DNA from: Eubacterium sp. CAG:786
GTDB lineage: Bacteria; Actinomycetota; Coriobacteriia; Coriobacteriales; Eggerthellaceae
Assembly: GCA_963635025.1 (NCBI GenBank)
Contig: CAVHFC010000005.1
Location: forward strand, 1 to 52,564
Reading direction: 5' to 3'
DNA length: 52,564 nt
The position numbers and the translations under genes were made by a program. Below the pieces are notes generated by a model that was not told the origin of the DNA, did no database searches, and saw nothing but the letters and a program-made list of their open reading frames with translations. This document shows, one piece after another, positions 11,965 to 26,166 of this stretch (the stretch's first letter is position 1; each line of letters begins with the position of its first letter).

Positions 11965-12564
11965 TTACATTGGCTTTGAATTCGCGTCGAGAGCTTTTAC
12001 TATCGATTCACGAAGGGAAGCGGGCTCGACCTTCGACGCTTGCTCTTTCAGTCGTTGCGCAGCGGAGAGGTCGATTTGCGGTTTCGCCGGCTTTGGCGTG
12101 GGTGGCACGAAGCCTTCGCCCACCCCCTCCCCGCGGTAAGGGTGGCGTTTAAGCATATCCCTGCGAGAGGCTTTTATCGAGAACACGTCGATGCGCTCCC
12201 CCTGCTCGTTAAGTTTGAGCTTCAAAAATTCCTGTCGCGCGTCGATATCCGACCTTACCGTCGCATCATCGGTATACACGACTAAAAGGGTATGACCTTG
12301 GCCGACCTTATCCGCAGCGGGATCCTTCGTTTTCTCGGGGCTTACGATATACACCGCGTTGGTGTGATCAAGCACCAGGCTGGCCGCATCCTTGTACACC
12401 TCCTCAACGGCGATTTTCCAACGAACATGCACCTCGGCCACTCTTTGCGCGCGAACCGTCTCGGGGTCGGAGCCGCCAAGGGCCTTAAGCATCGAGCGCA
12501 GGCCTTCCCCAAGCGACATTTGACACCCTTTTCTTTTGGTCGCTTTGTTCCCCTTTGCATTCAT
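11965..12564 (-). CDS. dciA: DciA/DUF721-like helicase-loading factor (alternative start 12519)
   Basis: Lies between recF and gyrB as in Actinobacteria; W...V...HT...LVVYTDD...QEFLKLKLN pattern; start overlaps recF stop. Confidence 0.65.
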   Translation of the reverse strand: MNAKGNKATKRKGCQMSLGEGLRSMLKALGGSDPETVRAQRVAEVHVRWKIAVEEVYKDAASLVLDHTNAVYIVSPEKTKDPAADKVGQGHTLLVVYTDDATVRSDIDARQEFLKLKLNEQGERIDVFSIKASRRDMLKRHPYRGEGVGEGFVPPTPKPAKPQIDLSAAQRLKEQASKVEPASLRESIVKALDANSKPM

Positions 12565-13718: not shown

Positions 13719-14819
13719 TTAGGAGATGCGCACAGGCATGACGAGATACAGGAAATTCTCGCCTTCCCCTGACTTGAAGATGCCCGGCTTCAAACCGGAC
13801 TGGACCTCAAGATACACGTCGTCAGTCGCAACCGAACCCAAGCCGTCAAGCACGTAGGTATAGTTGAATGCAATCTCGACGCTCTCGCCTTCGCCTGAGC
13901 ATGAAATGGTTTCCTGAGCCGATCCAACATCTTGAGCAGCAGCGGAAAGCTGGATGCTCTGGCTACCCGTATCGATGGAGAACTTAACCGGCGAACTTTG
14001 CTGGCCCAAAATGGACGTGCGTTTGACGCCCGAAACGAGATGATCAAGGTTGATTTTCACGCGCGTCGCATAGGAATCGGGCAGAAGTTGGCGATAGTTC
14101 GGGAAATTACCTTCAATACGACGGTTGATGAACACGGTGTCCTGGTAGGTCACGACGATTTGGTTTTCCGCCAACGCAATGGATATGTCGTTGTCGGTGC
14201 GCGCAAGCGAGGCAAGTTCCTGCAAGAACGAGCCGGCAATGACCGCCTGGAACCCTTCGGCAGCCGCCTCATCCAAAGTGGTCTCGGTAATGGCGAGGCG
14301 GTACGAATCGGTGGCGACCATCTTCAAGGTCTGACCCTCGAGGGTGATAAGGACGCCGGTCAATATGGCACGGCTCTCATCCTTCGACACGACACGGGCC
14401 ACTCGTTTCACCATAGAAGAGAACTGGGAGAATGGAATGGAGATGCGCTGCTGCGTGTCGACATGGGGGAATCCGGGGAAATCCTCGGCGTCAAGCGTCT
14501 TGATAGAAAAAGACGAAGTGTCGCAGGTGATGATCGCCGAATCCTCGCCTGCATCAACATGCACTGCCGCGTCGGGGAGGTTCTTCACGATATCCGAAAT
14601 AAGCTTGCCGGGAAATACCGACTTGCCTTCCTCTTCCACAAGAGCCGGGACGGTGTATTGAATGGACAGCTCCAAGTCGGTTGCCTGCATCGTAAGGTGA
14701 TCTGAATGAGCTTCCATATAGATGCCGGAGAGGATGGGGAGCGTTGAGCGCGTTGCGATTCCCTTAAGCACTACCGCTATCGCATTCTGAAACTCACTTT
14801 GATTGATGCTGAACTTCAT
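13719..14819 (-). CDS. dnaN: DNA polymerase III beta sliding clamp
   Basis: 366 aa; ATDLE, SRAILTG, VATDSYRL, GNFPNY, YLVMPVR. Confidence 0.98.
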   Translation of the reverse strand: MKFSINQSEFQNAIAVVLKGIATRSTLPILSGIYMEAHSDHLTMQATDLELSIQYTVPALVEEEGKSVFPGKLISDIVKNLPDAAVHVDAGEDSAIITCDTSSFSIKTLDAEDFPGFPHVDTQQRISIPFSQFSSMVKRVARVVSKDESRAILTGVLITLEGQTLKMVATDSYRLAITETTLDEAAAEGFQAVIAGSFLQELASLARTDNDISIALAENQIVVTYQDTVFINRRIEGNFPNYRQLLPDSYATRVKINLDHLVSGVKRTSILGQQSSPVKFSIDTGSQSIQLSAAAQDVGSAQETISCSGEGESVEIAFNYTYVLDGLGSVATDDVYLEVQSGLKPGIFKSGEGENFLYLVMPVRIS

Positions 14820-14883
14820 GGAGCCCTCTTTCTGTTGGGTTCGTTTTACTGATCTTCTTGTTCTTCTTTATATAGTACTTGTT

Positions 14884-14923
14884 TTAATAGTTGTAATAAT
14901 AAGCACGGTTGAAATGTTAGGAA
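14884..14923 (-). promoter_or_regulatory. oriC: oriC basal unwinding element: tandem degenerate DnaA boxes, GC spacer, DnaA-trios
   Basis: Minus strand TTCCTAACA TTTCAACC GTGC T TAT TAT TAC AAC TAT TAA in the AT-rich dnaA-dnaN gap; same layout as B. subtilis incC. Confidence 0.75.
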
Positions 14924-15093
14924 CTACTGTTTTACCACGTCAAATATTAAAAATAGTTCCTATTTCACTGTGGGTATCATGTCCCGCCCTTCCACCGAGT
15001 TTATTGCTTTTGTTATCTTTCCTCCGCTTTCGCTAGGTTTCCCTCATTCGGTCAAGATGTTTTGCTCAGGTTTTCAGCAGTCTCCCTTCGCGG

Positions 15094-15109
15094 TGTTTCA
15101 CGTGAAACA
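15094..15109. promoter_or_regulatory. parS: parS site in the dnaA-dnaN interval
   Basis: Perfect TGTTTCACGTGAAACA. Confidence 0.92.
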
Positions 15110-15125
15110 TTCTGTGAAGCAGCCG

Positions 15126-16718
15126 CTACATTTCTCGGATTTGCTGCTTCAGCGCTTCGACCTCTTCTCGGAGAACCCGGTTCTCCTTCATCTTCGCCTC
15201 TACGTTCGTTACCGAATACATGGCTGTTGAATGGTCGCGATTGAACTTCTTTCCGATATCTTCGTAAGGGATGTCAAGCAGGTCTCGGCAGAGAAAGATG
15301 GTCACCTGACGTGCATGGGCGATGTTTCGCGTTCTCTTCGGTCCGACGATGTCCGCATGGCTGACTTTGAAGAAGTGTTCCGCTTCTTTTTGAATGTCTT
15401 CGACCGTAAGACGCTTGCTCGGGCCTCCTGAGAAATGGTTCTCCAGCAGCATCCGAGCATCCTCTACGGTGAAGCGTGGCTGGTTGGTGTGCTGCGTTTG
15501 CCAGATGACCTTCGTCACGGCGCTCTTAAGCTCCCTGATATTAGAACTTGAGTTTTCGGCTATGTACATTTGAATCTCAGAAGGGATATCAACGTTGGTT
15601 GCCCCGCTGGTTCTTCGGAACTCGTCTATGTAGCCCTTCACGATTCCAAGCTTCGTTTCTATCTCTGGCGGCTGTATGTCCATGGTGCACCCGGAGTTGA
15701 ATCGGGTCTTGTAGCGCTCGTCGATGTCGATGTTGCTTGGCGCACGGTCGGCCGATAGAACGACTTGCTTTCCCTGGGTTGTAAGCTTGTTGAATATGTC
15801 GAATACTATGGTGAGCGTCGCTTTTTTACCTTGCAGGGATTGCACATCGTCGATAAGGAGAACGTCCGCGTCCTCGTACTTCTTCTGGAAGGTCCTGAAG
15901 CTGGCCTTGTCCTTATCGTGCTCCGCAACCGCGTTCGAGTAGTCGTTCGTGATTTCGTTTGCATCGACGTATACGACTTTGAGCGATGGGGTGTTCCGGC
16001 TGATGTAGTTTTGGATGGAGCGAAGAAGATGCGTTTTCCCCAAACCTGATTTCCCGTAGAGGAATAACGGATTGAGGGGGGTTTTCCCCGGCGCTTCCGC
16101 CACGTTTACCGCCATCGAATACGCCATCCTGTTCGAATCGCCTACCACGAAGTTCTCGAACGAGAAGGTTGGCAGGGCTCCTGCGCTCGCTGTATTTGCC
16201 GATTGGCGCTCTTCAACTTCGACTTCCGGCGTGTTATCGGGGGCTTGCTTTGTTTCCTCTGCTTCAAGGGGTGTCGCACCTGTGTCTTTGCCGGCTTCGT
16301 GTGCGGTAAGGTTGACGGGATCTTCTTGCCTGCTCTGAGTTCCGGCTGAATGGGTTTGGGTGGGCACTGTTTGCGCCGCCGCCGAAGTACCCCTTTCTTC
16401 CTTTGCGGCCGCCGGTGCTGCGGCCGGTCTCAGGGGGACTTGCTGTGCTTGTACGGGAGATGAGTACACCTCGATGCCAACCGTGAACGGCACCCCGCAT
16501 ATCTCTTCGAGCGCCATCTCGATGTAAGTGAGGTAATGGCGCTCGATCCAAGTTTTAATGAAGTCGGTGTCTGCGGTCAGCATGATGAATTCCATGTTGG
16601 CCGCTTGCGGATGCAGACGCGAAAAGAACGCGTCAACCTGGTTTTTGTCGATGTTGTCGTATTGCTTGATGCGCGCGCAAACGCTTGCCCATAGCTGCTC
16701 GGTCTCTTCGCTGTCCAT
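15126..16718 (-). CDS. dnaA: Chromosomal replication initiator DnaA (long domain II linker)
   Basis: FENFVVGDSN, NPLFLYGKSGLGKTHL, LLIDDVQ, NIREL, domain IV RDHSTAMYS. Confidence 0.97.
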   Translation of the reverse strand: MDSEETEQLWASVCARIKQYDNIDKNQVDAFFSRLHPQAANMEFIMLTADTDFIKTWIERHYLTYIEMALEEICGVPFTVGIEVYSSPVQAQQVPLRPAAAPAAAKEERGTSAAAQTVPTQTHSAGTQSRQEDPVNLTAHEAGKDTGATPLEAEETKQAPDNTPEVEVEERQSANTASAGALPTFSFENFVVGDSNRMAYSMAVNVAEAPGKTPLNPLFLYGKSGLGKTHLLRSIQNYISRNTPSLKVVYVDANEITNDYSNAVAEHDKDKASFRTFQKKYEDADVLLIDDVQSLQGKKATLTIVFDIFNKLTTQGKQVVLSADRAPSNIDIDERYKTRFNSGCTMDIQPPEIETKLGIVKGYIDEFRRTSGATNVDIPSEIQMYIAENSSSNIRELKSAVTKVIWQTQHTNQPRFTVEDARMLLENHFSGGPSKRLTVEDIQKEAEHFFKVSHADIVGPKRTRNIAHARQVTIFLCRDLLDIPYEDIGKKFNRDHSTAMYSVTNVEAKMKENRVLREEVEALKQQIREM

Positions 16719-16778
16719 CTTGGTCCTCCGCTGCCCTATCGCCTCTTGCGCGCGCCGCGCCTTTTAGTCGTCCGCATG

Positions 16779-16821
16779 TTTTCCACTATGGTATTCCACC
16801 GTTGAAGGCTTTTGTGGAAAA
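16779..16821. promoter_or_regulatory. DnaA-box cluster directly upstream of dnaA
   Basis: TTTTCCACT (16779), TATTCCACC (16792), TGTGGAAAA (16813). Confidence 0.7.
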
Positions 16822-16823
16822 CA

Positions 16824-17960
16824 TTAAATCTGCTGCGCTACCCGCATTCCCGTTTCGGTCAAAACATACTTTTTATCAGCGCCTTTGATGACGAGGCCAT
16901 CTGTCTCAAGCTTCTTTAGGCGCTGGTGAACAGTGGATATTGGCACGTTCGTCACGTGGTTCAGCTCGGTACCCCCTAAGGCTCCGTTCATAGCGATGGC
17001 TTTGATGATCTTTCTCTCTTTATCGCTGAGATTGGAAAGTATGGGTTGCAGGTTGATGCCCTGCTGATAAGCTCCTTGTCCCATCGGCTGCGGGTACGTC
17101 GCTTGCGGATACGTTTGCGGCATCTGAGTCATCTGGGGCGCTTGCACAGCGCCGATGCCCATCGGGTTTTGAGGCATGCCGATCATTTGCTGCGCCTGAT
17201 ACGCTTCTGCACCCCAGGCTTGCGGCACCTGGTTTCCCCAGGCTTGCATCTGAGGGTTTTGCTGCTGGTATGCGGGCCATGTTGATTGGGTTTGTCCCTG
17301 TATGCTCGGAAAACCCTGATTTTGGTATGCATTTGCCGGTTGTGCATAAGCGTACGGTGCTGCATTTTGTCCGGTCATGAACGATTGCGGGCTGATCTCC
17401 TCCTGTGTCGGGTTGCTTTCCGTTTCCTGATAGCCTCCGCCTTCTTCGCCGCGCGCGCTGATAGTGACGACCGATCCGGTTCCGAGGTTATCTTCTATCG
17501 TTATCGTTCCGTGCGTGAACTCGAGGTATTCCTTCACGATGGGAAGGCCCGATCCGACGCCCCTGATGTAGCTTTTCATCGGCTCGGTCGCGGAGCTGAA
17601 TCCAGGAAGCTGCGCGCGATCTTTCCAGGGGATGCCTGGCCCTTGGTCCGCAAACCTCACCGTATTTCCCCCCTCGAGGATGGAAACGGTGGCTTCCCTG
17701 AATCGTGCGTGGATAAAGTTTTCCGACACTTCGCGAATCACCGTGTAGGGGATTGTCCCTCCGGCCTCCTTCGCCTGCTCGTATACGCGCGATGCGAGCG
17801 TCTCTATGAATTCGCCAGTCGGTGCTGGCTCGATGATAGTGACTCGGGGCGCGCTGAGCATGTCATCGTATAAGGCTATGCGTGCGACGTTGTTCACATG
17901 GGTGAAGTCATATTCATCTGCGTTCTCATAAGGTTGTTGACCGGGATTATTCGTATCCAT
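16824..17960 (-). CDS. GHKL (HATPase_c) ATPase + Gln/Pro-rich linker + C-terminal winged-helix protein
   Basis: N-box REVSENFIHA, G1 DQGPGI, PGFSS, G2 GVGSGL; C-terminal LSDKERKIIKAI...ELNHVTNVPISTVHQRLKKLETDGLV...YVLTETG; likely start MDTNNP. Confidence 0.8.
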   Translation of the reverse strand: MDTNNPGQQPYENADEYDFTHVNNVARIALYDDMLSAPRVTIIEPAPTGEFIETLASRVYEQAKEAGGTIPYTVIREVSENFIHARFREATVSILEGGNTVRFADQGPGIPWKDRAQLPGFSSATEPMKSYIRGVGSGLPIVKEYLEFTHGTITIEDNLGTGSVVTISARGEEGGGYQETESNPTQEEISPQSFMTGQNAAPYAYAQPANAYQNQGFPSIQGQTQSTWPAYQQQNPQMQAWGNQVPQAWGAEAYQAQQMIGMPQNPMGIGAVQAPQMTQMPQTYPQATYPQPMGQGAYQQGINLQPILSNLSDKERKIIKAIAMNGALGGTELNHVTNVPISTVHQRLKKLETDGLVIKGADKKYVLTETGMRVAQQI

Positions 17961-17998
17961 CTGGTGTTTTGCAGCCTTTCCCGTTTCCTTTTCGCATG

Positions 17999-18530
17999 TT
18001 TTGCACAATTTCTGGAAAACTATCTGAAAAGTGTACCTTCTTTTCCCTCCGAGTTCCATTCATTCTGGGTAAATACCGTAGTTTGCGGTGGATTATTCAC
18101 TTGTCGATACATACGCTTCTATATGGTTTTCCTCCCTCTTCTCAAAGTTTTCCACTTTCTATTCGTAAATTGTTGAAAACTATGAAAACAAGTATGAATT
18201 TAAGAATGTTGAAAGACGCATTCGTTCCGTATATCGTTGAGAACATCAACGGAAGAATATGCTTCTGATAGGTTTTTGCTCGAGCTCGTCTTTGCACGGT
18301 GGAAATAGTTGAAAGTCTTCGCTTTCGATGATTTCCGAAATTTTAAAAAATTTGTTTTCCACTGTACTGTACAAAAGACCAGTTCAAGTACTGTTTTTAT
18401 TATCAGTTAAAACAAAAGTCGCAGGTAAAATGCCTGTTGATTGCCATCGATCTTGCCTTGACTTTTGACAATGCTTGGTGTTTTCCACACTACCTCATGC
18501 GTGAATTCCGAGTTTTCAACATTTTCCACA
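17999..18530. promoter_or_regulatory. oriC: Large AT-rich DnaA-box cluster (upstream oriC segment)
   Basis: About 12 box-like 9-mers, e.g. TTTTCCACT 18148 and 18355, TGTTGAAAA 18171, TTTTCCACA 18481 and 18522, TTTTCAACA 18513; gene orientation flips here. Confidence 0.8.
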
Positions 18531-18775
18531 ATGAAATTAACAATTAGTTTGTTCAGCTCTTCTTCTCAAGGTGAGCAGATCCGCTATTCCTCAATGCTCC
18601 TCTTTTTGCTCTACTGCTTGTGGCTGGAAGTCGAAAAACCCTATCTATAGTGGTTTACCTGCGAAAATGTGATAATCTTGTGCGTTACCCAAGAAAATAC
18701 CGGTCAGTGGTATGCATCCGATTGCGACGCAGGATATACTCAGCAAGTTGCTCTAAACCACGAAAGGGAAACGAT

Positions 18776-18910
18776 ATGAAGCGCACCTATCAACCTAACA
18801 CTCGCAAGCGTGCCAAGTGCCACGGCTTCCGTGCTCGCATGGCTACCAAGGGCGGCCGCAAGGTTCTCGCCGCTCGTCGTGCTAAGGGTCGTAAGCGTCT
18901 CTGCGTGTAA
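18776..18910 (+). CDS. rpmH: 50S ribosomal protein L34
   Basis: [22 protein letters not shown]...RRAKGRKRL, 44 aa. Confidence 0.98.
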
Positions 18911-18921
18911 AGAGATTTGGA

Positions 18922-19248
18922 TTGGAGACAATAAAGTCCCGCGAGGATATCTCCGATCTGTTCTCTAGCGGAAAACGCGTACGTACACCGTACCTTACGC
19001 TCATAGTGTTACCAGCGAAGCAGCACGACCGTTCAGGTCGTGTTGCTTTTATTGCGGGCAAGAAATCGGGCAACGCGGTATGGCGAAACAGCGCGAAGCG
19101 ACGCATGAGGGCGATCTGCCGGGAATTACAAGGTCCTTACCAGGGCTTCGATATGATATTTCTTGCGAAGTCGGGTATCTGCGATACCAAGTATAGTAAA
19201 GTGCTCTCGTCGTGCGACGATGCCTTGAAACGTATTGGAGCTCGGTAG
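18922..19248 (+). CDS. rnpA: RNase P protein component
   Basis: KKSGNAVWRNSAKRRMR (RNR motif variant); follows rpmH. Confidence 0.92.
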   Translation: METIKSREDISDLFSSGKRVRTPYLTLIVLPAKQHDRSGRVAFIAGKKSGNAVWRNSAKRRMRAICRELQGPYQGFDMIFLAKSGICDTKYSKVLSSCDDALKRIGAR

Positions 19249-21882: not shown

Positions 21883-22872
21883 GTGGGATTCTTTGACGGT
21901 TTCCGCAAGGAGAAGAAGAACACCGAACCGATACAGCAGGAGCACGAGGCTGCTCAGGAAAACGAGATCGAAGATGAAATTGCCATAGACCATATCGAGG
22001 TTGTCGAGCGCGATGTCGAGCCGCAAGAGCCTGTTGAGGAAATGCCTGTCATAGAATCCGTTCCGCTGAAATCTTATAAAGATAAAGCGCCGGTGACCCA
22101 TGTGATAGGACAAACGAAGATTTTGGCTATCATCAATCAGAAAGGTGGCGTCGGCAAATCAACCACCGCCATCAATCTTTCTGCGGCGCTCGGCGAGCTT
22201 GGTAAGCAGGTTCTTCTCGTCGACTTGGACCCACAGGGAAACTCCTCAAGCGGTCTTGGCATCGAGAAGAACCGAGTTGATAACTGCATCTACGATGTGC
22301 TGCTCAACGATGTTCCGATTGAAGACGTCATCATCCCGGATGTTTGCGAAGGGCTTGATGTGGTGCCTGCCACCATCAACCTTGCCGGTGCTGAAGTGGA
22401 GCTTGTTTCCGAAATGGCTCGCGAGAATCGTTTGAAGGACGCGGTTGGGAGTCTTCGAGGGAAATACGATTACATTTTCATCGACTGCCCTCCCTCGCTT
22501 GGATTGCTGACCATCAACGCTCTTGTGGCTGCCGATAAGCTTCTCATCCCTATCCAGTGCGAGTTTTACGCACTTGAAGGTGTGACAAAACTTCTTGATT
22601 CAATGAAACGTGTCAAAACGCGTTTGAATCCGACGTTGGATATCTTCGGTGTGTTGATGACCATGTACGACGGAAGGACGACGCTTTCTCGTCAGGTTGT
22701 GAACGAGGTTCGTGGGTATTTCAATCGGTTGGTGTTCGAGACGCTCATTCCTCGTACCGTGAAGCTGTCTGAGGCTCCCAGTTACGGACAGCCTATCAAC
22801 TTGTACGATCCGACAGGAAAAGGCGCCCAGGCGTATATGGACCTTGCAAAGGAAGTGATCGCTCGTGGCTAA
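21883..22872 (+). CDS. parA: ParA/Soj chromosome partitioning ATPase (acidic N-terminal extension)
   Basis: NQKGGVGKSTT, DLDPQGN, IDCPPSLGLLT, IPRTVKLSEAPS. Confidence 0.96.
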   Translation: MGFFDGFRKEKKNTEPIQQEHEAAQENEIEDEIAIDHIEVVERDVEPQEPVEEMPVIESVPLKSYKDKAPVTHVIGQTKILAIINQKGGVGKSTTAINLSAALGELGKQVLLVDLDPQGNSSSGLGIEKNRVDNCIYDVLLNDVPIEDVIIPDVCEGLDVVPATINLAGAEVELVSEMARENRLKDAVGSLRGKYDYIFIDCPPSLGLLTINALVAADKLLIPIQCEFYALEGVTKLLDSMKRVKTRLNPTLDIFGVLMTMYDGRTTLSRQVVNEVRGYFNRLVFETLIPRTVKLSEAPSYGQPINLYDPTGKGAQAYMDLAKEVIARG

Positions 22873-23971
22873 AAATGGACGAAGCGGCCTTGGCCGTGGT
22901 TTGAATTCCCTCCTCAGCGGCTCGTATGACGAGGCGATTCCGCCTGAGGAAACCCTGCAACGTGTAACGGTATCCGCTGATCCCTCCCCCGCTCCTGCGC
23001 GTTCTGTGGCAAAGGAAGAAAGCAAAGAGGGCGCGCCGAGAATCGTGCGCGAACAGGAGCCGGAGTCGATTGCAGACGATGGTGGTATGGTTACCATCAA
23101 GGGAGTTGTTGAGCGCGAGGCGCGTCCGGTTCAAGCGCCTGCAACGGTTGCTCCCGAACCTGTTGCGGTTCAAGTTGATCAAGTTTCGAACGAGGTTGCC
23201 ATTGATCGCATTCTCCCGAATCCGGATCAACCGCGCACCAATTTCAAACGAGAGGAACTTGACGAGCTTGCTTCCTCTATCCGCAAAGATGGCTTGCTGC
23301 AACCTATTCTTGTTCGGGCCATGTCTGACGGAACCTATCAGATTATCGCCGGAGAGCGACGTTGGCAGGCTTCCAAGCTTGCTGGGTTGGAAAAGGTTCC
23401 TGTCACCGTTAAAGAGGCTGACGACGACAAGGCGCTCGAGCTCGCGTTGATCGAGAATATCCAGCGATCCGATTTGAATCCGATCGAAGAGGCGTATGGT
23501 TATCGTCGCATGATGGAGCGCCTGAACATGACTCAGGCAGAAGTGGCGCAAGCGATGTCCAAAGGACGCTCAACGGTGGCGAATGCTTTGCGTTTGCTTG
23601 AGCTTCCTGAAGAGGCTCAGCAATTGCTGTTCGAAGAGAAAATTACTGCTGGGCATGCACGAGCGATTCTTTCGATCCCAACAAAGGAAGGTCGAGATCG
23701 CTTGACGAAGAAGTTGATGGAGGAAAAACTCAGCGTGCGTGAGGCGGAATCCTTGGCTCGGCTTTTCTCCGGGAAAAAGAGCGATAACGCAAAACCGCGC
23801 ACTTCTGTTCCGAAAGAGTATAAGAAGGTTGCGCGAACGCTAAAGGATGTGCTTGATACAAATGTTCGCGTGAAATCCCTGAACGGCAAGAATAAGATCG
23901 AGATCGAATTCAAGGATGAAGAGGATCTTGAGCGCCTATTTAAGGGTATCCTGGCATCCAATCTTGCTTAG
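22865..23971 (+). CDS. parB: ParB/Spo0J partitioning CTPase
   Basis: GLGRGL, PDQPR, GERRWQA, ENIQRSDLNPIEEA, HTH RSTVANALRLL. Confidence 0.96.
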   Translation: MAKNGRSGLGRGLNSLLSGSYDEAIPPEETLQRVTVSADPSPAPARSVAKEESKEGAPRIVREQEPESIADDGGMVTIKGVVEREARPVQAPATVAPEPVAVQVDQVSNEVAIDRILPNPDQPRTNFKREELDELASSIRKDGLLQPILVRAMSDGTYQIIAGERRWQASKLAGLEKVPVTVKEADDDKALELALIENIQRSDLNPIEEAYGYRRMMERLNMTQAEVAQAMSKGRSTVANALRLLELPEEAQQLLFEEKITAGHARAILSIPTKEGRDRLTKKLMEEKLSVREAESLARLFSGKKSDNAKPRTSVPKEYKKVARTLKDVLDTNVRVKSLNGKNKIEIEFKDEEDLERLFKGILASNLA

Positions 23972-24060: not shown

Positions 24061-25101
24061 TTAGGCTTCTTGCTTTGAATAGGTATTCTTCAACTGTCCG
24101 CATGCGCCAGCTATATCCGATCCCCGTGAATCCCTGAGAGTGGCCTCGAGGCCTTCTTCGTTGATAGTTGCAATCCATTCGTTGATGGTCTGGTGATCGC
24201 TTGGTTTGAACGGCGACTCGGGGATGGAGTTGATGGGAATCAAATTGATGTGACACAGCAGGCCCTGACAGAACGAAAGCAAGGCTGCGAGGTCGCGATT
24301 GGTGTCATTGATTCCTTTGATCATGATGTATTCAAAGGTGACGCGGCGGTTCGTTTTCTCTATATAGCGTTCAAGGTGTTCTTTGAGACTATCAAGCGGA
24401 AAAGCAGCCGTTTTAGGCATGAGGTCAAGGCGCACATCTTGTCTTGCCGCATGCAAGGAAACAGCAAGGGTGAATTGTTCGGGTTCATGAGCGAAACTGT
24501 CTATCCCGGGAATGACTCCGCAGGTTGATACGCATATGTGACGAGCTCCGATGCCCAACCCTTTTGGATTATTGATAATACGAAGAGCAGCAACCACGTT
24601 GTGGTAATTAAGGAAAGGTTCCCCCTGCCCCATCCCGACAACGTTTGTAACTCGTTTTCCCATACGTTGTTGCACAACGAGAATTTGGTCAACGATTTCT
24701 CCAGGCGTAAGGTTTCTAGTAAGGCCTTCTTTGCCGGTGGCGCAAAAAGAGCAAGCCATCGGGCACCCAGCTTGCGTAGAGAAGCAAACCGTGAGTCTGT
24801 CGCCATTCCTGGAGGGAATCGCTACTGTTTCAACAACGACTCCATCATAATAAGAAAGCAGGTATTTACGAGTTCCGTCGTTTGATATAGCTTCCTCGAG
24901 GATGGACGGAACATATAGAGGGTGCTTCGAAGCAAGCTCTATACGAAGAGCAGCCGGAAGATTGGTCATCTCGTCATAGCTTTGCGCGAACTTTCCGTAA
25001 AGCCACTCAAATATCTGCTTGGAACGGAAAGCTGGCTGCCCAAGCTCTTTCAGGCGTGTAGCAAGCTCGTCATATGAGTATGTTTTAATTGGTTCATTCA
25101 T
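24061..25101 (-). CDS. rlmN: 23S rRNA/tRNA m2A methyltransferase RlmN (radical SAM)
   Basis: GCPMACSFCATG, MGQGEP, SLHA, DIAGACGQL; start MNEPIK lies 7 nt after TATAAT (probably leaderless). Confidence 0.95.
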   Translation of the reverse strand: MNEPIKTYSYDELATRLKELGQPAFRSKQIFEWLYGKFAQSYDEMTNLPAALRIELASKHPLYVPSILEEAISNDGTRKYLLSYYDGVVVETVAIPSRNGDRLTVCFSTQAGCPMACSFCATGKEGLTRNLTPGEIVDQILVVQQRMGKRVTNVVGMGQGEPFLNYHNVVAALRIINNPKGLGIGARHICVSTCGVIPGIDSFAHEPEQFTLAVSLHAARQDVRLDLMPKTAAFPLDSLKEHLERYIEKTNRRVTFEYIMIKGINDTNRDLAALLSFCQGLLCHINLIPINSIPESPFKPSDHQTINEWIATINEEGLEATLRDSRGSDIAGACGQLKNTYSKQEA

Positions 25102-25116
25102 AGCCGGCATTATACC

Positions 25117-25132
25117 TGTTTCACGTGAAACA
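25117..25132. promoter_or_regulatory. parS: parS site in the divergent rlmN/ddl promoter region
   Basis: Perfect TGTTTCACGTGAAACA. Confidence 0.92.
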
Positions 25133-25215
25133 ATTGCTTGAGTGTGCTGATCGGAAAGGTGTATCTGCTGGTTTGTTATACTGCAAGCAACGTTATCTAA
25201 GAGAAAGAGGAAAGC

Positions 25216-26166
25216 ATGGCGACTCTTGATCCTTCCCAATGTCGAGTTGCTCTTCTTGCTGGCGGGAAAAGCAACGAACGGGAGATTTCCCTTGCGTCGG
25301 GCAAGGGTGCGCGAGAGGCGCTTGAGGCTGCCGGTTTTCCAGTCACTATGATCGATCCTGCTGACAAGAACGATTTGAAGAAACTCATCGACGAGGATTT
25401 CGATGTCGCGTTTCTTTGCATGCATGGCAAATTTGGGGAGGATGGAACCATTCAAGGTTTGCTGGATGTTTTAAGCATTCCCTACACATGTTCCGGTGTT
25501 TGGTCAAGCGCGTTGGCGATGGATAAATCGAAGACGAAGGTTTTCTATGAGCGCAACAATGTTCCTACTCCGCCCTCTTTAACGGTGTTTAAAGACGATG
25601 CTGTCGATGTTGCTGAAGTGGTGAAAAAGCTCGGAAGCAGCGTTGTGGTCAAGCCGGCGACTGAGGGTAGCGCTATTGGCGTGTTTATCGTCAACGGTGA
25701 AGAAGAGATCGCCGGAGCTTTGAAGAAGGCCTTTGAGATCGATTCCGAAGTGCTGATAGAGCGTTACATCAGGGGTCGCGAGTTCACCGTTGCGGTTCTT
25801 GGGAACAAGGATGCAGTCGCGTTTCCGGTTATCGAAATTGTTCCCAAGAGCGATTTTTATGATTTCGAATCGAAATATGCGCCCGGCGGATCTCAGCATA
25901 TTTGCCCCGCGAACATTCCTGATGACCTCGCAAGCCGCTTGAAGGATGCCGCTGTTGCCGCTCATGTTGCTCTTTCATGCAGCGGTACCTCTCGATCGGA
26001 TTTCCTCATGGAAGAAGACGGGACGTTTTGGGTCTTGGAAACCAACACCATACCCGGCATGACGGCAACTTCTCTGCTTCCCGATGCTGCGAGCGCAGCT
26101 GGAATGACATTCCCTGAGCTTTGCACGAAGCTGATTGAATTCGCATTGGAAGAGCAGACGTATTAA
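25216..26166 (+). CDS. ddl: D-alanine--D-alanine ligase
   Basis: GGKSNEREISL, HGKFGEDG, KPATEGS, FYDFESKY, ETNTIPGMT. Confidence 0.96.
   Translation: MATLDPSQCRVALLAGGKSNEREISLASGKGAREALEAAGFPVTMIDPADKNDLKKLIDEDFDVAFLCMHGKFGEDGTIQGLLDVLSIPYTCSGVWSSALAMDKSKTKVFYERNNVPTPPSLTVFKDDAVDVAEVVKKLGSSVVVKPATEGSAIGVFIVNGEEEIAGALKKAFEIDSEVLIERYIRGREFTVAVLGNKDAVAFPVIEIVPKSDFYDFESKYAPGGSQHICPANIPDDLASRLKDAAVAAHVALSCSGTSRSDFLMEEDGTFWVLETNTIPGMTATSLLPDAASAAGMTFPELCTKLIEFALEEQTY

Follow-up and report, generated by a model that had tools for sequence, protein, structure and literature searches.

In the 52,564-nucleotide stretch of Eubacterium sp. CAG:786 DNA analyzed here (the window), the interval between rpmH and dnaA holds a gene whose product joins a GHKL ATPase domain, a linker and a winged helix (wHTH), and the locus raises the question of what such a protein does directly ahead of dnaA. 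A first-pass annotation had described a 378-amino-acid open reading frame (ORF) there, codirectional with dnaA, and we confirmed it at 16824-17960 on the minus strand, in the same direction as dnaA (15126-16718, minus strand; 530 amino acids, TIGR00362 over cut-off) and divergent from its upstream neighbor (18776-18910, plus strand), which we take from its translation to be rpmH. A second in-frame ATG lies at 18059; because the frame of the close relative L002 opens only 8 codons ahead of the Met equivalent to 17960, the latter is the likely start. Pfam placed HATPase_c at residues 72 to 168 (E = 5e-10) and HTH_24 at residues 311 to 357, both over cut-off, and an AlphaFold2 model was confident at residues ~20 to 170 and 305 to 378 and not in the linker. 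Neither Pfam nor the model of the 378-residue protein revealed a DHp, sensor or transmembrane region, in agreement with the annotated GHKL fold lacking a His-phosphotransfer or sensor domain and ending in a wHTH.

The gene is separated from dnaA by a 105-bp spacer (16719-16823) with a pair of DnaA boxes at 16779-16787 (plus strand) and 16813-16821 (minus strand), a two-box arrangement restricted to the closest relatives. Rfam gave no match within 14700-19000. Stop-codon read-through from the gene into dnaA was rejected, since the two frames coincide in some lineages and not in others, and a fusion of the protein with DnaA was set aside on the weak evidence that the one longer homologue (708 amino acids) among 600 candidates contained only GHKL and wHTH domains.

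We then turned to how widely this arrangement is shared. Close matches in the coriobacterial genera Rubneribacter, Gordonibacter, Arabiibacter and Adlercreutzia are titled merely "ATP-binding protein." An ATP-domain profile matched once, and only once, in 145 of the 151 class genomes that were at least 95% complete, and a single-protein search found one match in 151 of 401 genomes of the phylum, an underestimate because one family (f36) went from 8 of 17 to 16 of 18 genomes with the profile. G041, a genome marked as unpublished, enters the tallies as a single non-match. Named records with the family came from Rubrobacteraceae, Miltoncostaeales and other Actinomycetota, two Armatimonadota and one Bacillota, and the ATP domain retrieved 436 cluster representatives at an E value of 1e-10 or better. 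Directly after the gene came dnaA in 101 of 101 other carrier genomes inspected (97 within fetched loci and 4 in which the gene closes a single record and dnaA is encoded at the beginning of that record), genomes that are related and do not amount to 101 independent events. In a named collection of 72 loci, 33 scored as family, of which 32 had dnaA next and the remaining contig ended 318 nt on; the 33 include at least two contigs that also belong to genomes among the 101 carriers. None of 39 weak kinase-like matches adjoined dnaA or rpmH, and ATP domains as little as 26 to 32% identical to the source copy still stood before dnaA. The annotation's claim of a lineage-specific gene tied to dnaA is thus upheld: the gene is lineage-restricted and conserved, its ATP-site motifs are intact, its position held across Coriobacteriia and its orthologues are not scattered away from dnaA.

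The gap to dnaA, measured from automatically picked starts, did not exceed 21 nt in 59 of 102 loci, with overlapping genes in several, which suggests that the two genes form one transcript. Counting against a shared transcript, 22 of 43 longer spacers contained a -10-like hexamer (a count without a shuffle control), and dnaA may therefore have its own promoter in some lineages; in L076-L080, L097, L110 and L113-L116, such a hexamer, likewise uncontrolled, lies at or just past the stop codon of the gene. The family tree shared 28 of 32 well-supported splits with the DnaA tree, with 2 in conflict and no control gene for comparison. At the sequence level, L122, L096 and L098 show a frameshift that separates the coding sequence of the ATP domain from that of the winged helix, with the latter intact in another frame, by sequencing error or true split. 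In L131 (G026), an ORF just downstream of the gene and ahead of the real dnaA begins with about 18 residues that resemble the start of DnaA, joined to a linker and a winged helix, and could be a local duplication or an assembly artefact.

The gene is dispensable in some lineages. True losses were found in G027, G444 and G446 (family f4, of the same order) and in G070 and G100 (family f36), all five of which keep an intact rpmH-dnaA junction of 617 to 848 nt and have no family match genome-wide; because of these losses, the protein would be a modulator rather than a core initiator. Among 19 non-carriers, the rpmH-dnaA interval measured 242 to 848 nt and those scanned held no family ORF, as anticipated by the annotation, which had called this interval usually gene-free. 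Loss of dnaA itself in f4, seemingly absent from 9 of 12 genomes, was dropped as assembly gaps, since 7 of these also lacked dnaN and 2 had dnaN at a contig edge. In an alignment of 102 carrier and 21 non-carrier DnaA sequences, no residue tracked presence or loss of the gene. The source DnaA itself has a long A/P/Q/T-rich domain II, and its AAA+ core departs from the family consensus (LTIVFDIFN for QEEFFHTFN and RYKTRFNSG for RLxSRFExG).

Where the gene sits relative to the origin was examined next. DnaA boxes flank it on both sides, as annotated, at 16779 and 16813 and then from 17999 to 18530; they are at chance level over the whole window (58 versus 51.6 +/- 6.7), whereas 800-bp segments across 17961-18775 rank first of 23,475 genome-wide with every pattern tried. 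This rpmH-gene interval (17961-18775), with its 9 to 10 DnaA-box matches (e.g., 17999, 18011, 18148, 18171, 18355, 18481, 18513 and 18522), is, we infer, the promoter region of the gene-dnaA unit. A possible -10 hexamer, TACACT (18030-18035, minus strand), was noticed by eye with two DnaA-box matches just downstream, and a consensus promoter scan found no promoter on the gene's strand upstream. That the gene is itself regulated by DnaA, as the annotation had supposed, is plausible from the richness of the upstream sequence in DnaA boxes.

The predicted unwinding element lies elsewhere, at 14885-14913 (minus strand), where a degenerate DnaA box is followed by a short spacer, six DnaA-trio-like triplets and an AT-rich tract; the available text of a previous study describes the basal unwinding system as a DnaA box adjoining repeated trios (PMC8287927). 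With a hand-made pattern, the box-plus-trio motif was detected in 58 of 96 dnaA-dnaN gaps versus 1 of 102 upstream intervals. DnaA boxes were enriched over base shuffles in both places, with 612 observed versus 57 expected upstream and 409 versus 32 downstream. Of 102 carriers, 61 have a three-box cluster, whose strict form is absent from the window, upstream of the gene, and 7 of 19 non-carriers have it upstream of dnaA itself, which places the gene between dnaA and the region that usually controls it. As the predicted unwinding element falls beyond dnaA and before dnaN, the origin appears to be split into a box-rich half upstream of the gene and an unwinding half in the dnaA-dnaN gap, and the gene lies on the side of the dnaA promoter, away from the opening site. 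The description of the gene as embedded in the origin therefore survives only in the sense of this split origin, and the placement has to be corrected: the predicted element is found between dnaA and dnaN and not beside the gene.

The cumulative GC skew reaches its minimum around 14 to 19 kb. Taking the parS consensus as we assume it to be, a perfect parS-type palindrome lies in the dnaA-dnaN gap at 15094-15109, about 180 bp from the predicted unwinding element, and all six such palindromes of the 2.49-Mb assembly fall inside the window (7043, 15094, 21049, 25117, 30164 and 36391). The window also encodes ParA and ParB (21883-23971) and, after parB, a radical SAM protein of RlmN type (24061-25455, minus strand). 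On the other side, dciA usually lies between recF and gyrB, and the ORF found there (11965-12564, minus strand) has no Pfam match and found no counterpart among five same-order genomes, carriers or non-carriers; it is possibly a highly diverged DciA. In a clade including Rubrobacteraceae (L061, L062, L065, L098-L100, L141 and L142), the dnaA-dnaN gap has 15 to 20 DnaA-box matches and the upstream region 3 to 5, the opposite of the source family. In L115 and L116 (G238 and G325; genus g24), the box cluster, gene, dnaA and trio-like tract have been inverted as one block between dnaN and rpmH, probably in one event, which leaves dnaN divergent from the gene and rpmH after dnaA.

What the protein may do is best read from its ATP-binding module, a GHKL/Bergerat domain with an N-terminal extension (residues 24 to 170; 17451-17891, minus strand; model pLDDT 95) that presents the hallmarks of the superfamily, i.e., N, G1, F and G2 boxes in an alpha/beta sandwich with an ATP lid. 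The conserved beta-beta-alpha extension, overlooked in the first-pass annotation (R27-I-A-x-Y-D...P38-R-V; residues 26 to 65; 17766-17885, minus strand), belongs to the ATP domain, and its fold is common to DIP2311 and in part to SpoIIAB. The N-box, E77-x3-N81-x2-H84-A85 (17706-17732, minus strand), contains the predicted catalytic Glu and Mg-binding Asn; among 76 diverse members, E77 is conserved in 75, N81 and H84 in 76 and A85 in 74, and H84 is the sole conserved His in the family. Residues N81, H84, D105, G107, G109, G134, G138, G151 and G162 are invariant in this set, and the positions of D105-x-G107-x-G109 and G134-x-G136-x-G138 are invariant or kept in 75 of 76 members. Compared to the three closest relatives, dN of the ATP domain was 0.02 to 0.05 at a dS of about 1.0 to 1.2, a dN/dS of about 0.02 to 0.04, and the domain is under strong purifying selection.

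Identity as a sensor histidine kinase was rejected. Pfam over the 76 members and the model showed no DHp or HPt domain with a phospho-acceptor His, no response regulator or sensor input is found beside the gene, whose neighbors are rpmH and dnaA, and its N-box carries a Glu, a residue found in 0 of 14 N-boxes listed from the source genome's kinase-type GHKL proteins. The family has a likeness to histidine-kinase CA and CheA P4 domains (KinB 3D36, HK853, CpxA and CheA 1I58): HATPase_c was matched in 76 of 76 members, and the G1, F and G2 boxes and the lid are closest to these domains by sequence. The family differs from them, besides the N-box Glu, in its extra N-terminal strands and helix and its C-terminal winged helix.

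Structural comparison gave a different order of kinship. The best fold match of the ATP-domain model was DIP2311 (PDB 3LMM; Z 14.5, rmsd 2.7, 146 of 147 residues aligned), followed by SpoIIAB (Z 11.9, 125 aligned, covering most of the N-terminal extension), with histidine-kinase CA domains at Z 11.5 or less and about 110 aligned; in a wide structure search, the lead of DIP2311 (12.3) over SpoIIAB and ThkA (11.4) was under 1 Z. GyrB, MutL and Hsp90 were absent among the best 50 structural matches, which does not exclude kinship, and MutL gave a profile match to the N-box. Profile matches to the C-terminal half of the domain were to KinB (E = 3e-10), CheA (1e-8) and BCK (2e-7), a SpoIIAB/RsbW-type profile matched the domain at 1e-5, and hhalign gave 96 to 98% to the source genome's kinases versus 5 to 6% to its PF13749 proteins. 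In Pfam, none of the 76 members matched PF13749, HATPase_c_2 (PF13581) or SLFN_AlbA_2, the conserved region beginning at the GHKL extension. A P-x-x-(A/V)-(V/I)-R-E-x3-N N-box is shared by DIP2311 and two PF13749 proteins of the source genome. That genome encodes two HATPase_c_4 proteins placed away from the origin (G000:C31, L245, and G000:C154, L246), one with SLFN_AlbA_2; the SLFN_AlbA_2-HATPase_c_4 protein has DIP2311 as its only PDB match (E = 0.04), and in their alignment the N-terminal strand is alike and the P-x-x-A-V-R-E-x3-N box recurs. Judged from the model and these comparisons, the ATP domain appears to combine a scaffold of Schlafen-ATPase type with a lid resembling that of kinases. 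Counted against such an ATP switch are the closer sequence kinship of the C-terminal half to kinases, the lack of PF13749 matches in all 76 members and the narrow lead in the wide search.

Schlafen-ATPases ("Schlatpases"; PF04326 with PF13749 and an HTH, such as DIP2311 and RzAgo) resemble the family in their fold over the whole ATP domain, extension included, in the P-x-x-x-x-R-E-x3-N N-box and in the order of GHKL domain and C-terminal HTH. According to the available part of a 2026 preprint, the PF13749 domain of RzAgo binds and hydrolyzes ATP, with E314 and N318 coordinating ATP and ATP driving tetramers, and the majority of Schlafen-GHKL proteins are small and carry either a C-terminal HTH or no further domain (10.64898/2026.05.29.728809). 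The E-x3-N pair of the family, E77 and N81, corresponds to E314 and N318. Unlike them, the family has no Schlafen nuclease domain, its lid is shorter and kinase-like, its His is at N+3 and not N+4, and it is single-copy and fixed by dnaA, not in defence islands.

The fold and N-box link to these proteins bears on the reading that the gene is a domesticated defence relic, kept before dnaA mainly since the site is hard to disturb and without a replication role. The genuine losses in two families and the interdomain frameshift in three loci would fit such a relic, which we nevertheless regard as improbable: the ATP domain has the dN/dS given above, its catalytic-type residues are invariant across the 76 members, and no relative was found on the plasmids or viral contigs searched.

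The second-ranking fold match leads to another alternative, a Ser/Thr kinase or partner switch like SpoIIAB, CapK or PDK, anchored at the origin by its winged helix and phosphorylating or binding DnaA or another initiation or partition protein. SpoIIAB, like the family, has an E-x3-N motif. The SpoIIAB/RsbW/CapK proteins are also stand-alone GHKL domains without DHp, PDK and BCK profiles match with (F/Y)-(S/T)-(S/T)-A lid and G-x-G-x-G-L-P motifs in common, and the far greater conservation of the ATP domain than of the winged helix is as expected with a fixed protein partner. In the available part of its description, CapK is a GHKL Ser kinase that, paired with the STAS-wHTH repressor CapS, controls the adjacent operon (PMC13373217). 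Unlike these systems, the family has its ATPase and winged helix in one chain, with no STAS domain and no linked STAS partner; the one STAS_2 match of the genome is on contig C42 beside separate HATPase_c_2 proteins, a domain that no member matches, and DnaA has no carrier-specific Ser or Thr. We consider a kinase or partner switch rather unlikely.

Between the ATP domain and the winged helix runs a disordered linker of 138 amino acids (residues 171 to 308; 17037-17450, minus strand), put at roughly 120 in the first-pass annotation. It is rich in Q, P, A, G, Y and M (Q31 P16 A16 G15 Y9 M8), with no K, R or D and 7 Glu, and its mean pLDDT was 41 to 50 in every 10-residue block from 171 to 300. 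Its length is not conserved, varying among homologues from 8 to 183 amino acids. The annotation had called it prion-like and suggested condensate formation at the origin, for which its predicted disorder, its Q/P/G/Y-rich composition uncharged save for the Glu residues and the linkers of at least 80 amino acids in 18 of 76 homologues may be cited. This idea did not hold up and is now very improbable: linkers of 40 amino acids or less occur in 54 of 76 homologues, also within the source genome's own family, and linker dN (0.38 to 0.47 against the three closest relatives) is the highest of the parts.

The C-terminal winged helix (residues 309 to 378; 16827-17036, minus strand) matches MarR-type and Csa3 wHTH folds at Z 11 to 13.6 and resembles those of Csa3/CasR regulators; PADLOC matches were to the winged helix only. 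Csa3/CasR (CARF plus wHTH) and MarR-type proteins likewise tether a ligand-binding domain to a similar winged helix, but the ligand domain of the family is a GHKL ATPase in place of CARF, and its locus is the dnaA operon and not CRISPR. In the recognition helix and the wing, residues of DNA-contact type are frequent across the 76 members (S342 in 58, T343 in 57, R346 in 56, K364 in 59 and R365 in 68); in the source genome, Q346 and Y365 replace the usual arginines. Within the genus, dN of the winged helix against the three closest relatives was 0.23 to 0.32 compared to the 0.02 to 0.05 of the ATP domain.

In the DNA flanking the family loci, no conserved operator was found besides DnaA boxes, trios and promoter and ribosome-binding words. 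An ACCTGCG-type motif was rejected as an operator: a loose form of it turned up in just 52 of 104 upstream regions, and the genome has 960 copies of ACCTGCG. The rpmH-gene interval of the source genome contains an inverted pair of TTTACCTGCG motifs at 18420 and 18657, and ACCTGC-like motifs recur upstream in the source genome's family, not family-wide.

Lack of an operator near the origin and fast evolution of the winged helix are what one would see if the protein were an ATP-switched DNA binder that is co-expressed with dnaA and acts elsewhere, as a growth-linked global regulator or a nucleoid or replication-stress factor, its link to dnaA being shared regulation. The same origin layout is found in genomes without the gene, and the upstream boxes fit ordinary dnaA autoregulation, which accounts for DnaA boxes upstream of dnaA in the available text of the study concerned (PMC8203912). 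Speaking against action elsewhere, the gene occurs nowhere but before dnaA in the carriers examined despite the low ATP-domain identities noted above, and gene trees follow DnaA trees, the comparison having no control gene. We hold this alternative to be possible and distinctly less probable than the reading that follows.

Our preferred reading, given somewhat less than an even chance, is that the protein is an ATP-switched DNA-binding regulator of the dnaA promoter or adjacent origin DNA, the likeliest targets given the fixed position of the gene. The gene would come first on a transcript that it shares with dnaA and that DnaA represses. ATP binding would assemble oligomers through the GHKL domain, in the way seen for the Schlafen-ATPase GHKL domain of RzAgo. 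The oligomers would gather two or more winged helices on DNA, with the linker as a mere tether, until hydrolysis by E77 resets the switch. Once bound close to the dnaA promoter, or to DNA lying between the two halves of the split origin, the protein would tune DnaA supply or initiation to nucleotide state. For this regulator we counted the position, the single copy, the short gaps, the box cluster upstream, the block inversion, the DIP2311 fold, the Glu N-box and the winged-helix residues; counted against it were the missing operator, the fast-drifting winged helix with Q346 and Y365, the five losses and the lack of a tracking DnaA residue. Genomic neighborhood alone cannot reveal a protein's target.

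A bolder version, which we regard as possible and clearly less probable than a promoter or origin regulator in general, is that the protein descends from a Schlafen-ATPase defence module that shed its nuclease and became, through domestication, an ATP-gated origin clamp, whose ATP-driven oligomers would bridge or gate both halves of the split oriC through their winged helices or modify DnaA there.

Initiation tuning restricted to one bacterial branch, as proposed for this family, has parallels, SirA, YabA, Hda, DiaA and MtrA being lineage-specific regulators of DnaA or oriC. CcrZ is another in the available text of its description (PMC8387234). We found no sequence or fold link between the family and any of these six proteins. 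To our knowledge, none of them combines a GHKL domain with a wHTH, and none has its gene in the space separating dnaA from its control region.

The full-text literature covered, i.e., other than subscription papers, yielded no paper on a GHKL-wHTH gene before dnaA, the available part of an actinobacterial review (PMC4255298) does not mention such a gene, and nothing on replication-initiation control in Coriobacteriia appeared in the literature searched. Supplementary tables of Coriobacteriia papers, as far as available and including those of PMC10234575 other than its files 10 and 13 to 23, contain no rows for dnaA-region genes. The parts are thus known, and the combination of GHKL with wHTH and its site before dnaA are undescribed in the literature searched; new here are the predicted unwinding element beyond dnaA, the real losses, the linker that is not conserved and a studied Schlafen-ATPase domain as a concrete model for a possible switch mechanism.

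Only a few model bacteria have had their control of replication initiation worked out in detail, and the regulators differ from one to the next. Coriobacteriia count common inhabitants of the human gut among their members. A gene that is present once per genome, strongly conserved and, in several classes, fixed in place between dnaA and its control region offers a candidate for such control that can be tested directly. Genetic tools exist for Eggerthella lenta and other Coriobacteriia, according to the available text of their description (PMC9734109), which brings deletion, ChIP-seq and ori/ter assays within reach. Should the Schlafen-ATPase ancestry be true, an immunity-type module would have been recruited into core cell-cycle control, and if the origin clamp is true, deep-branching Actinomycetota and a few other phyla would have a GHKL-based control of initiation that has no described counterpart.
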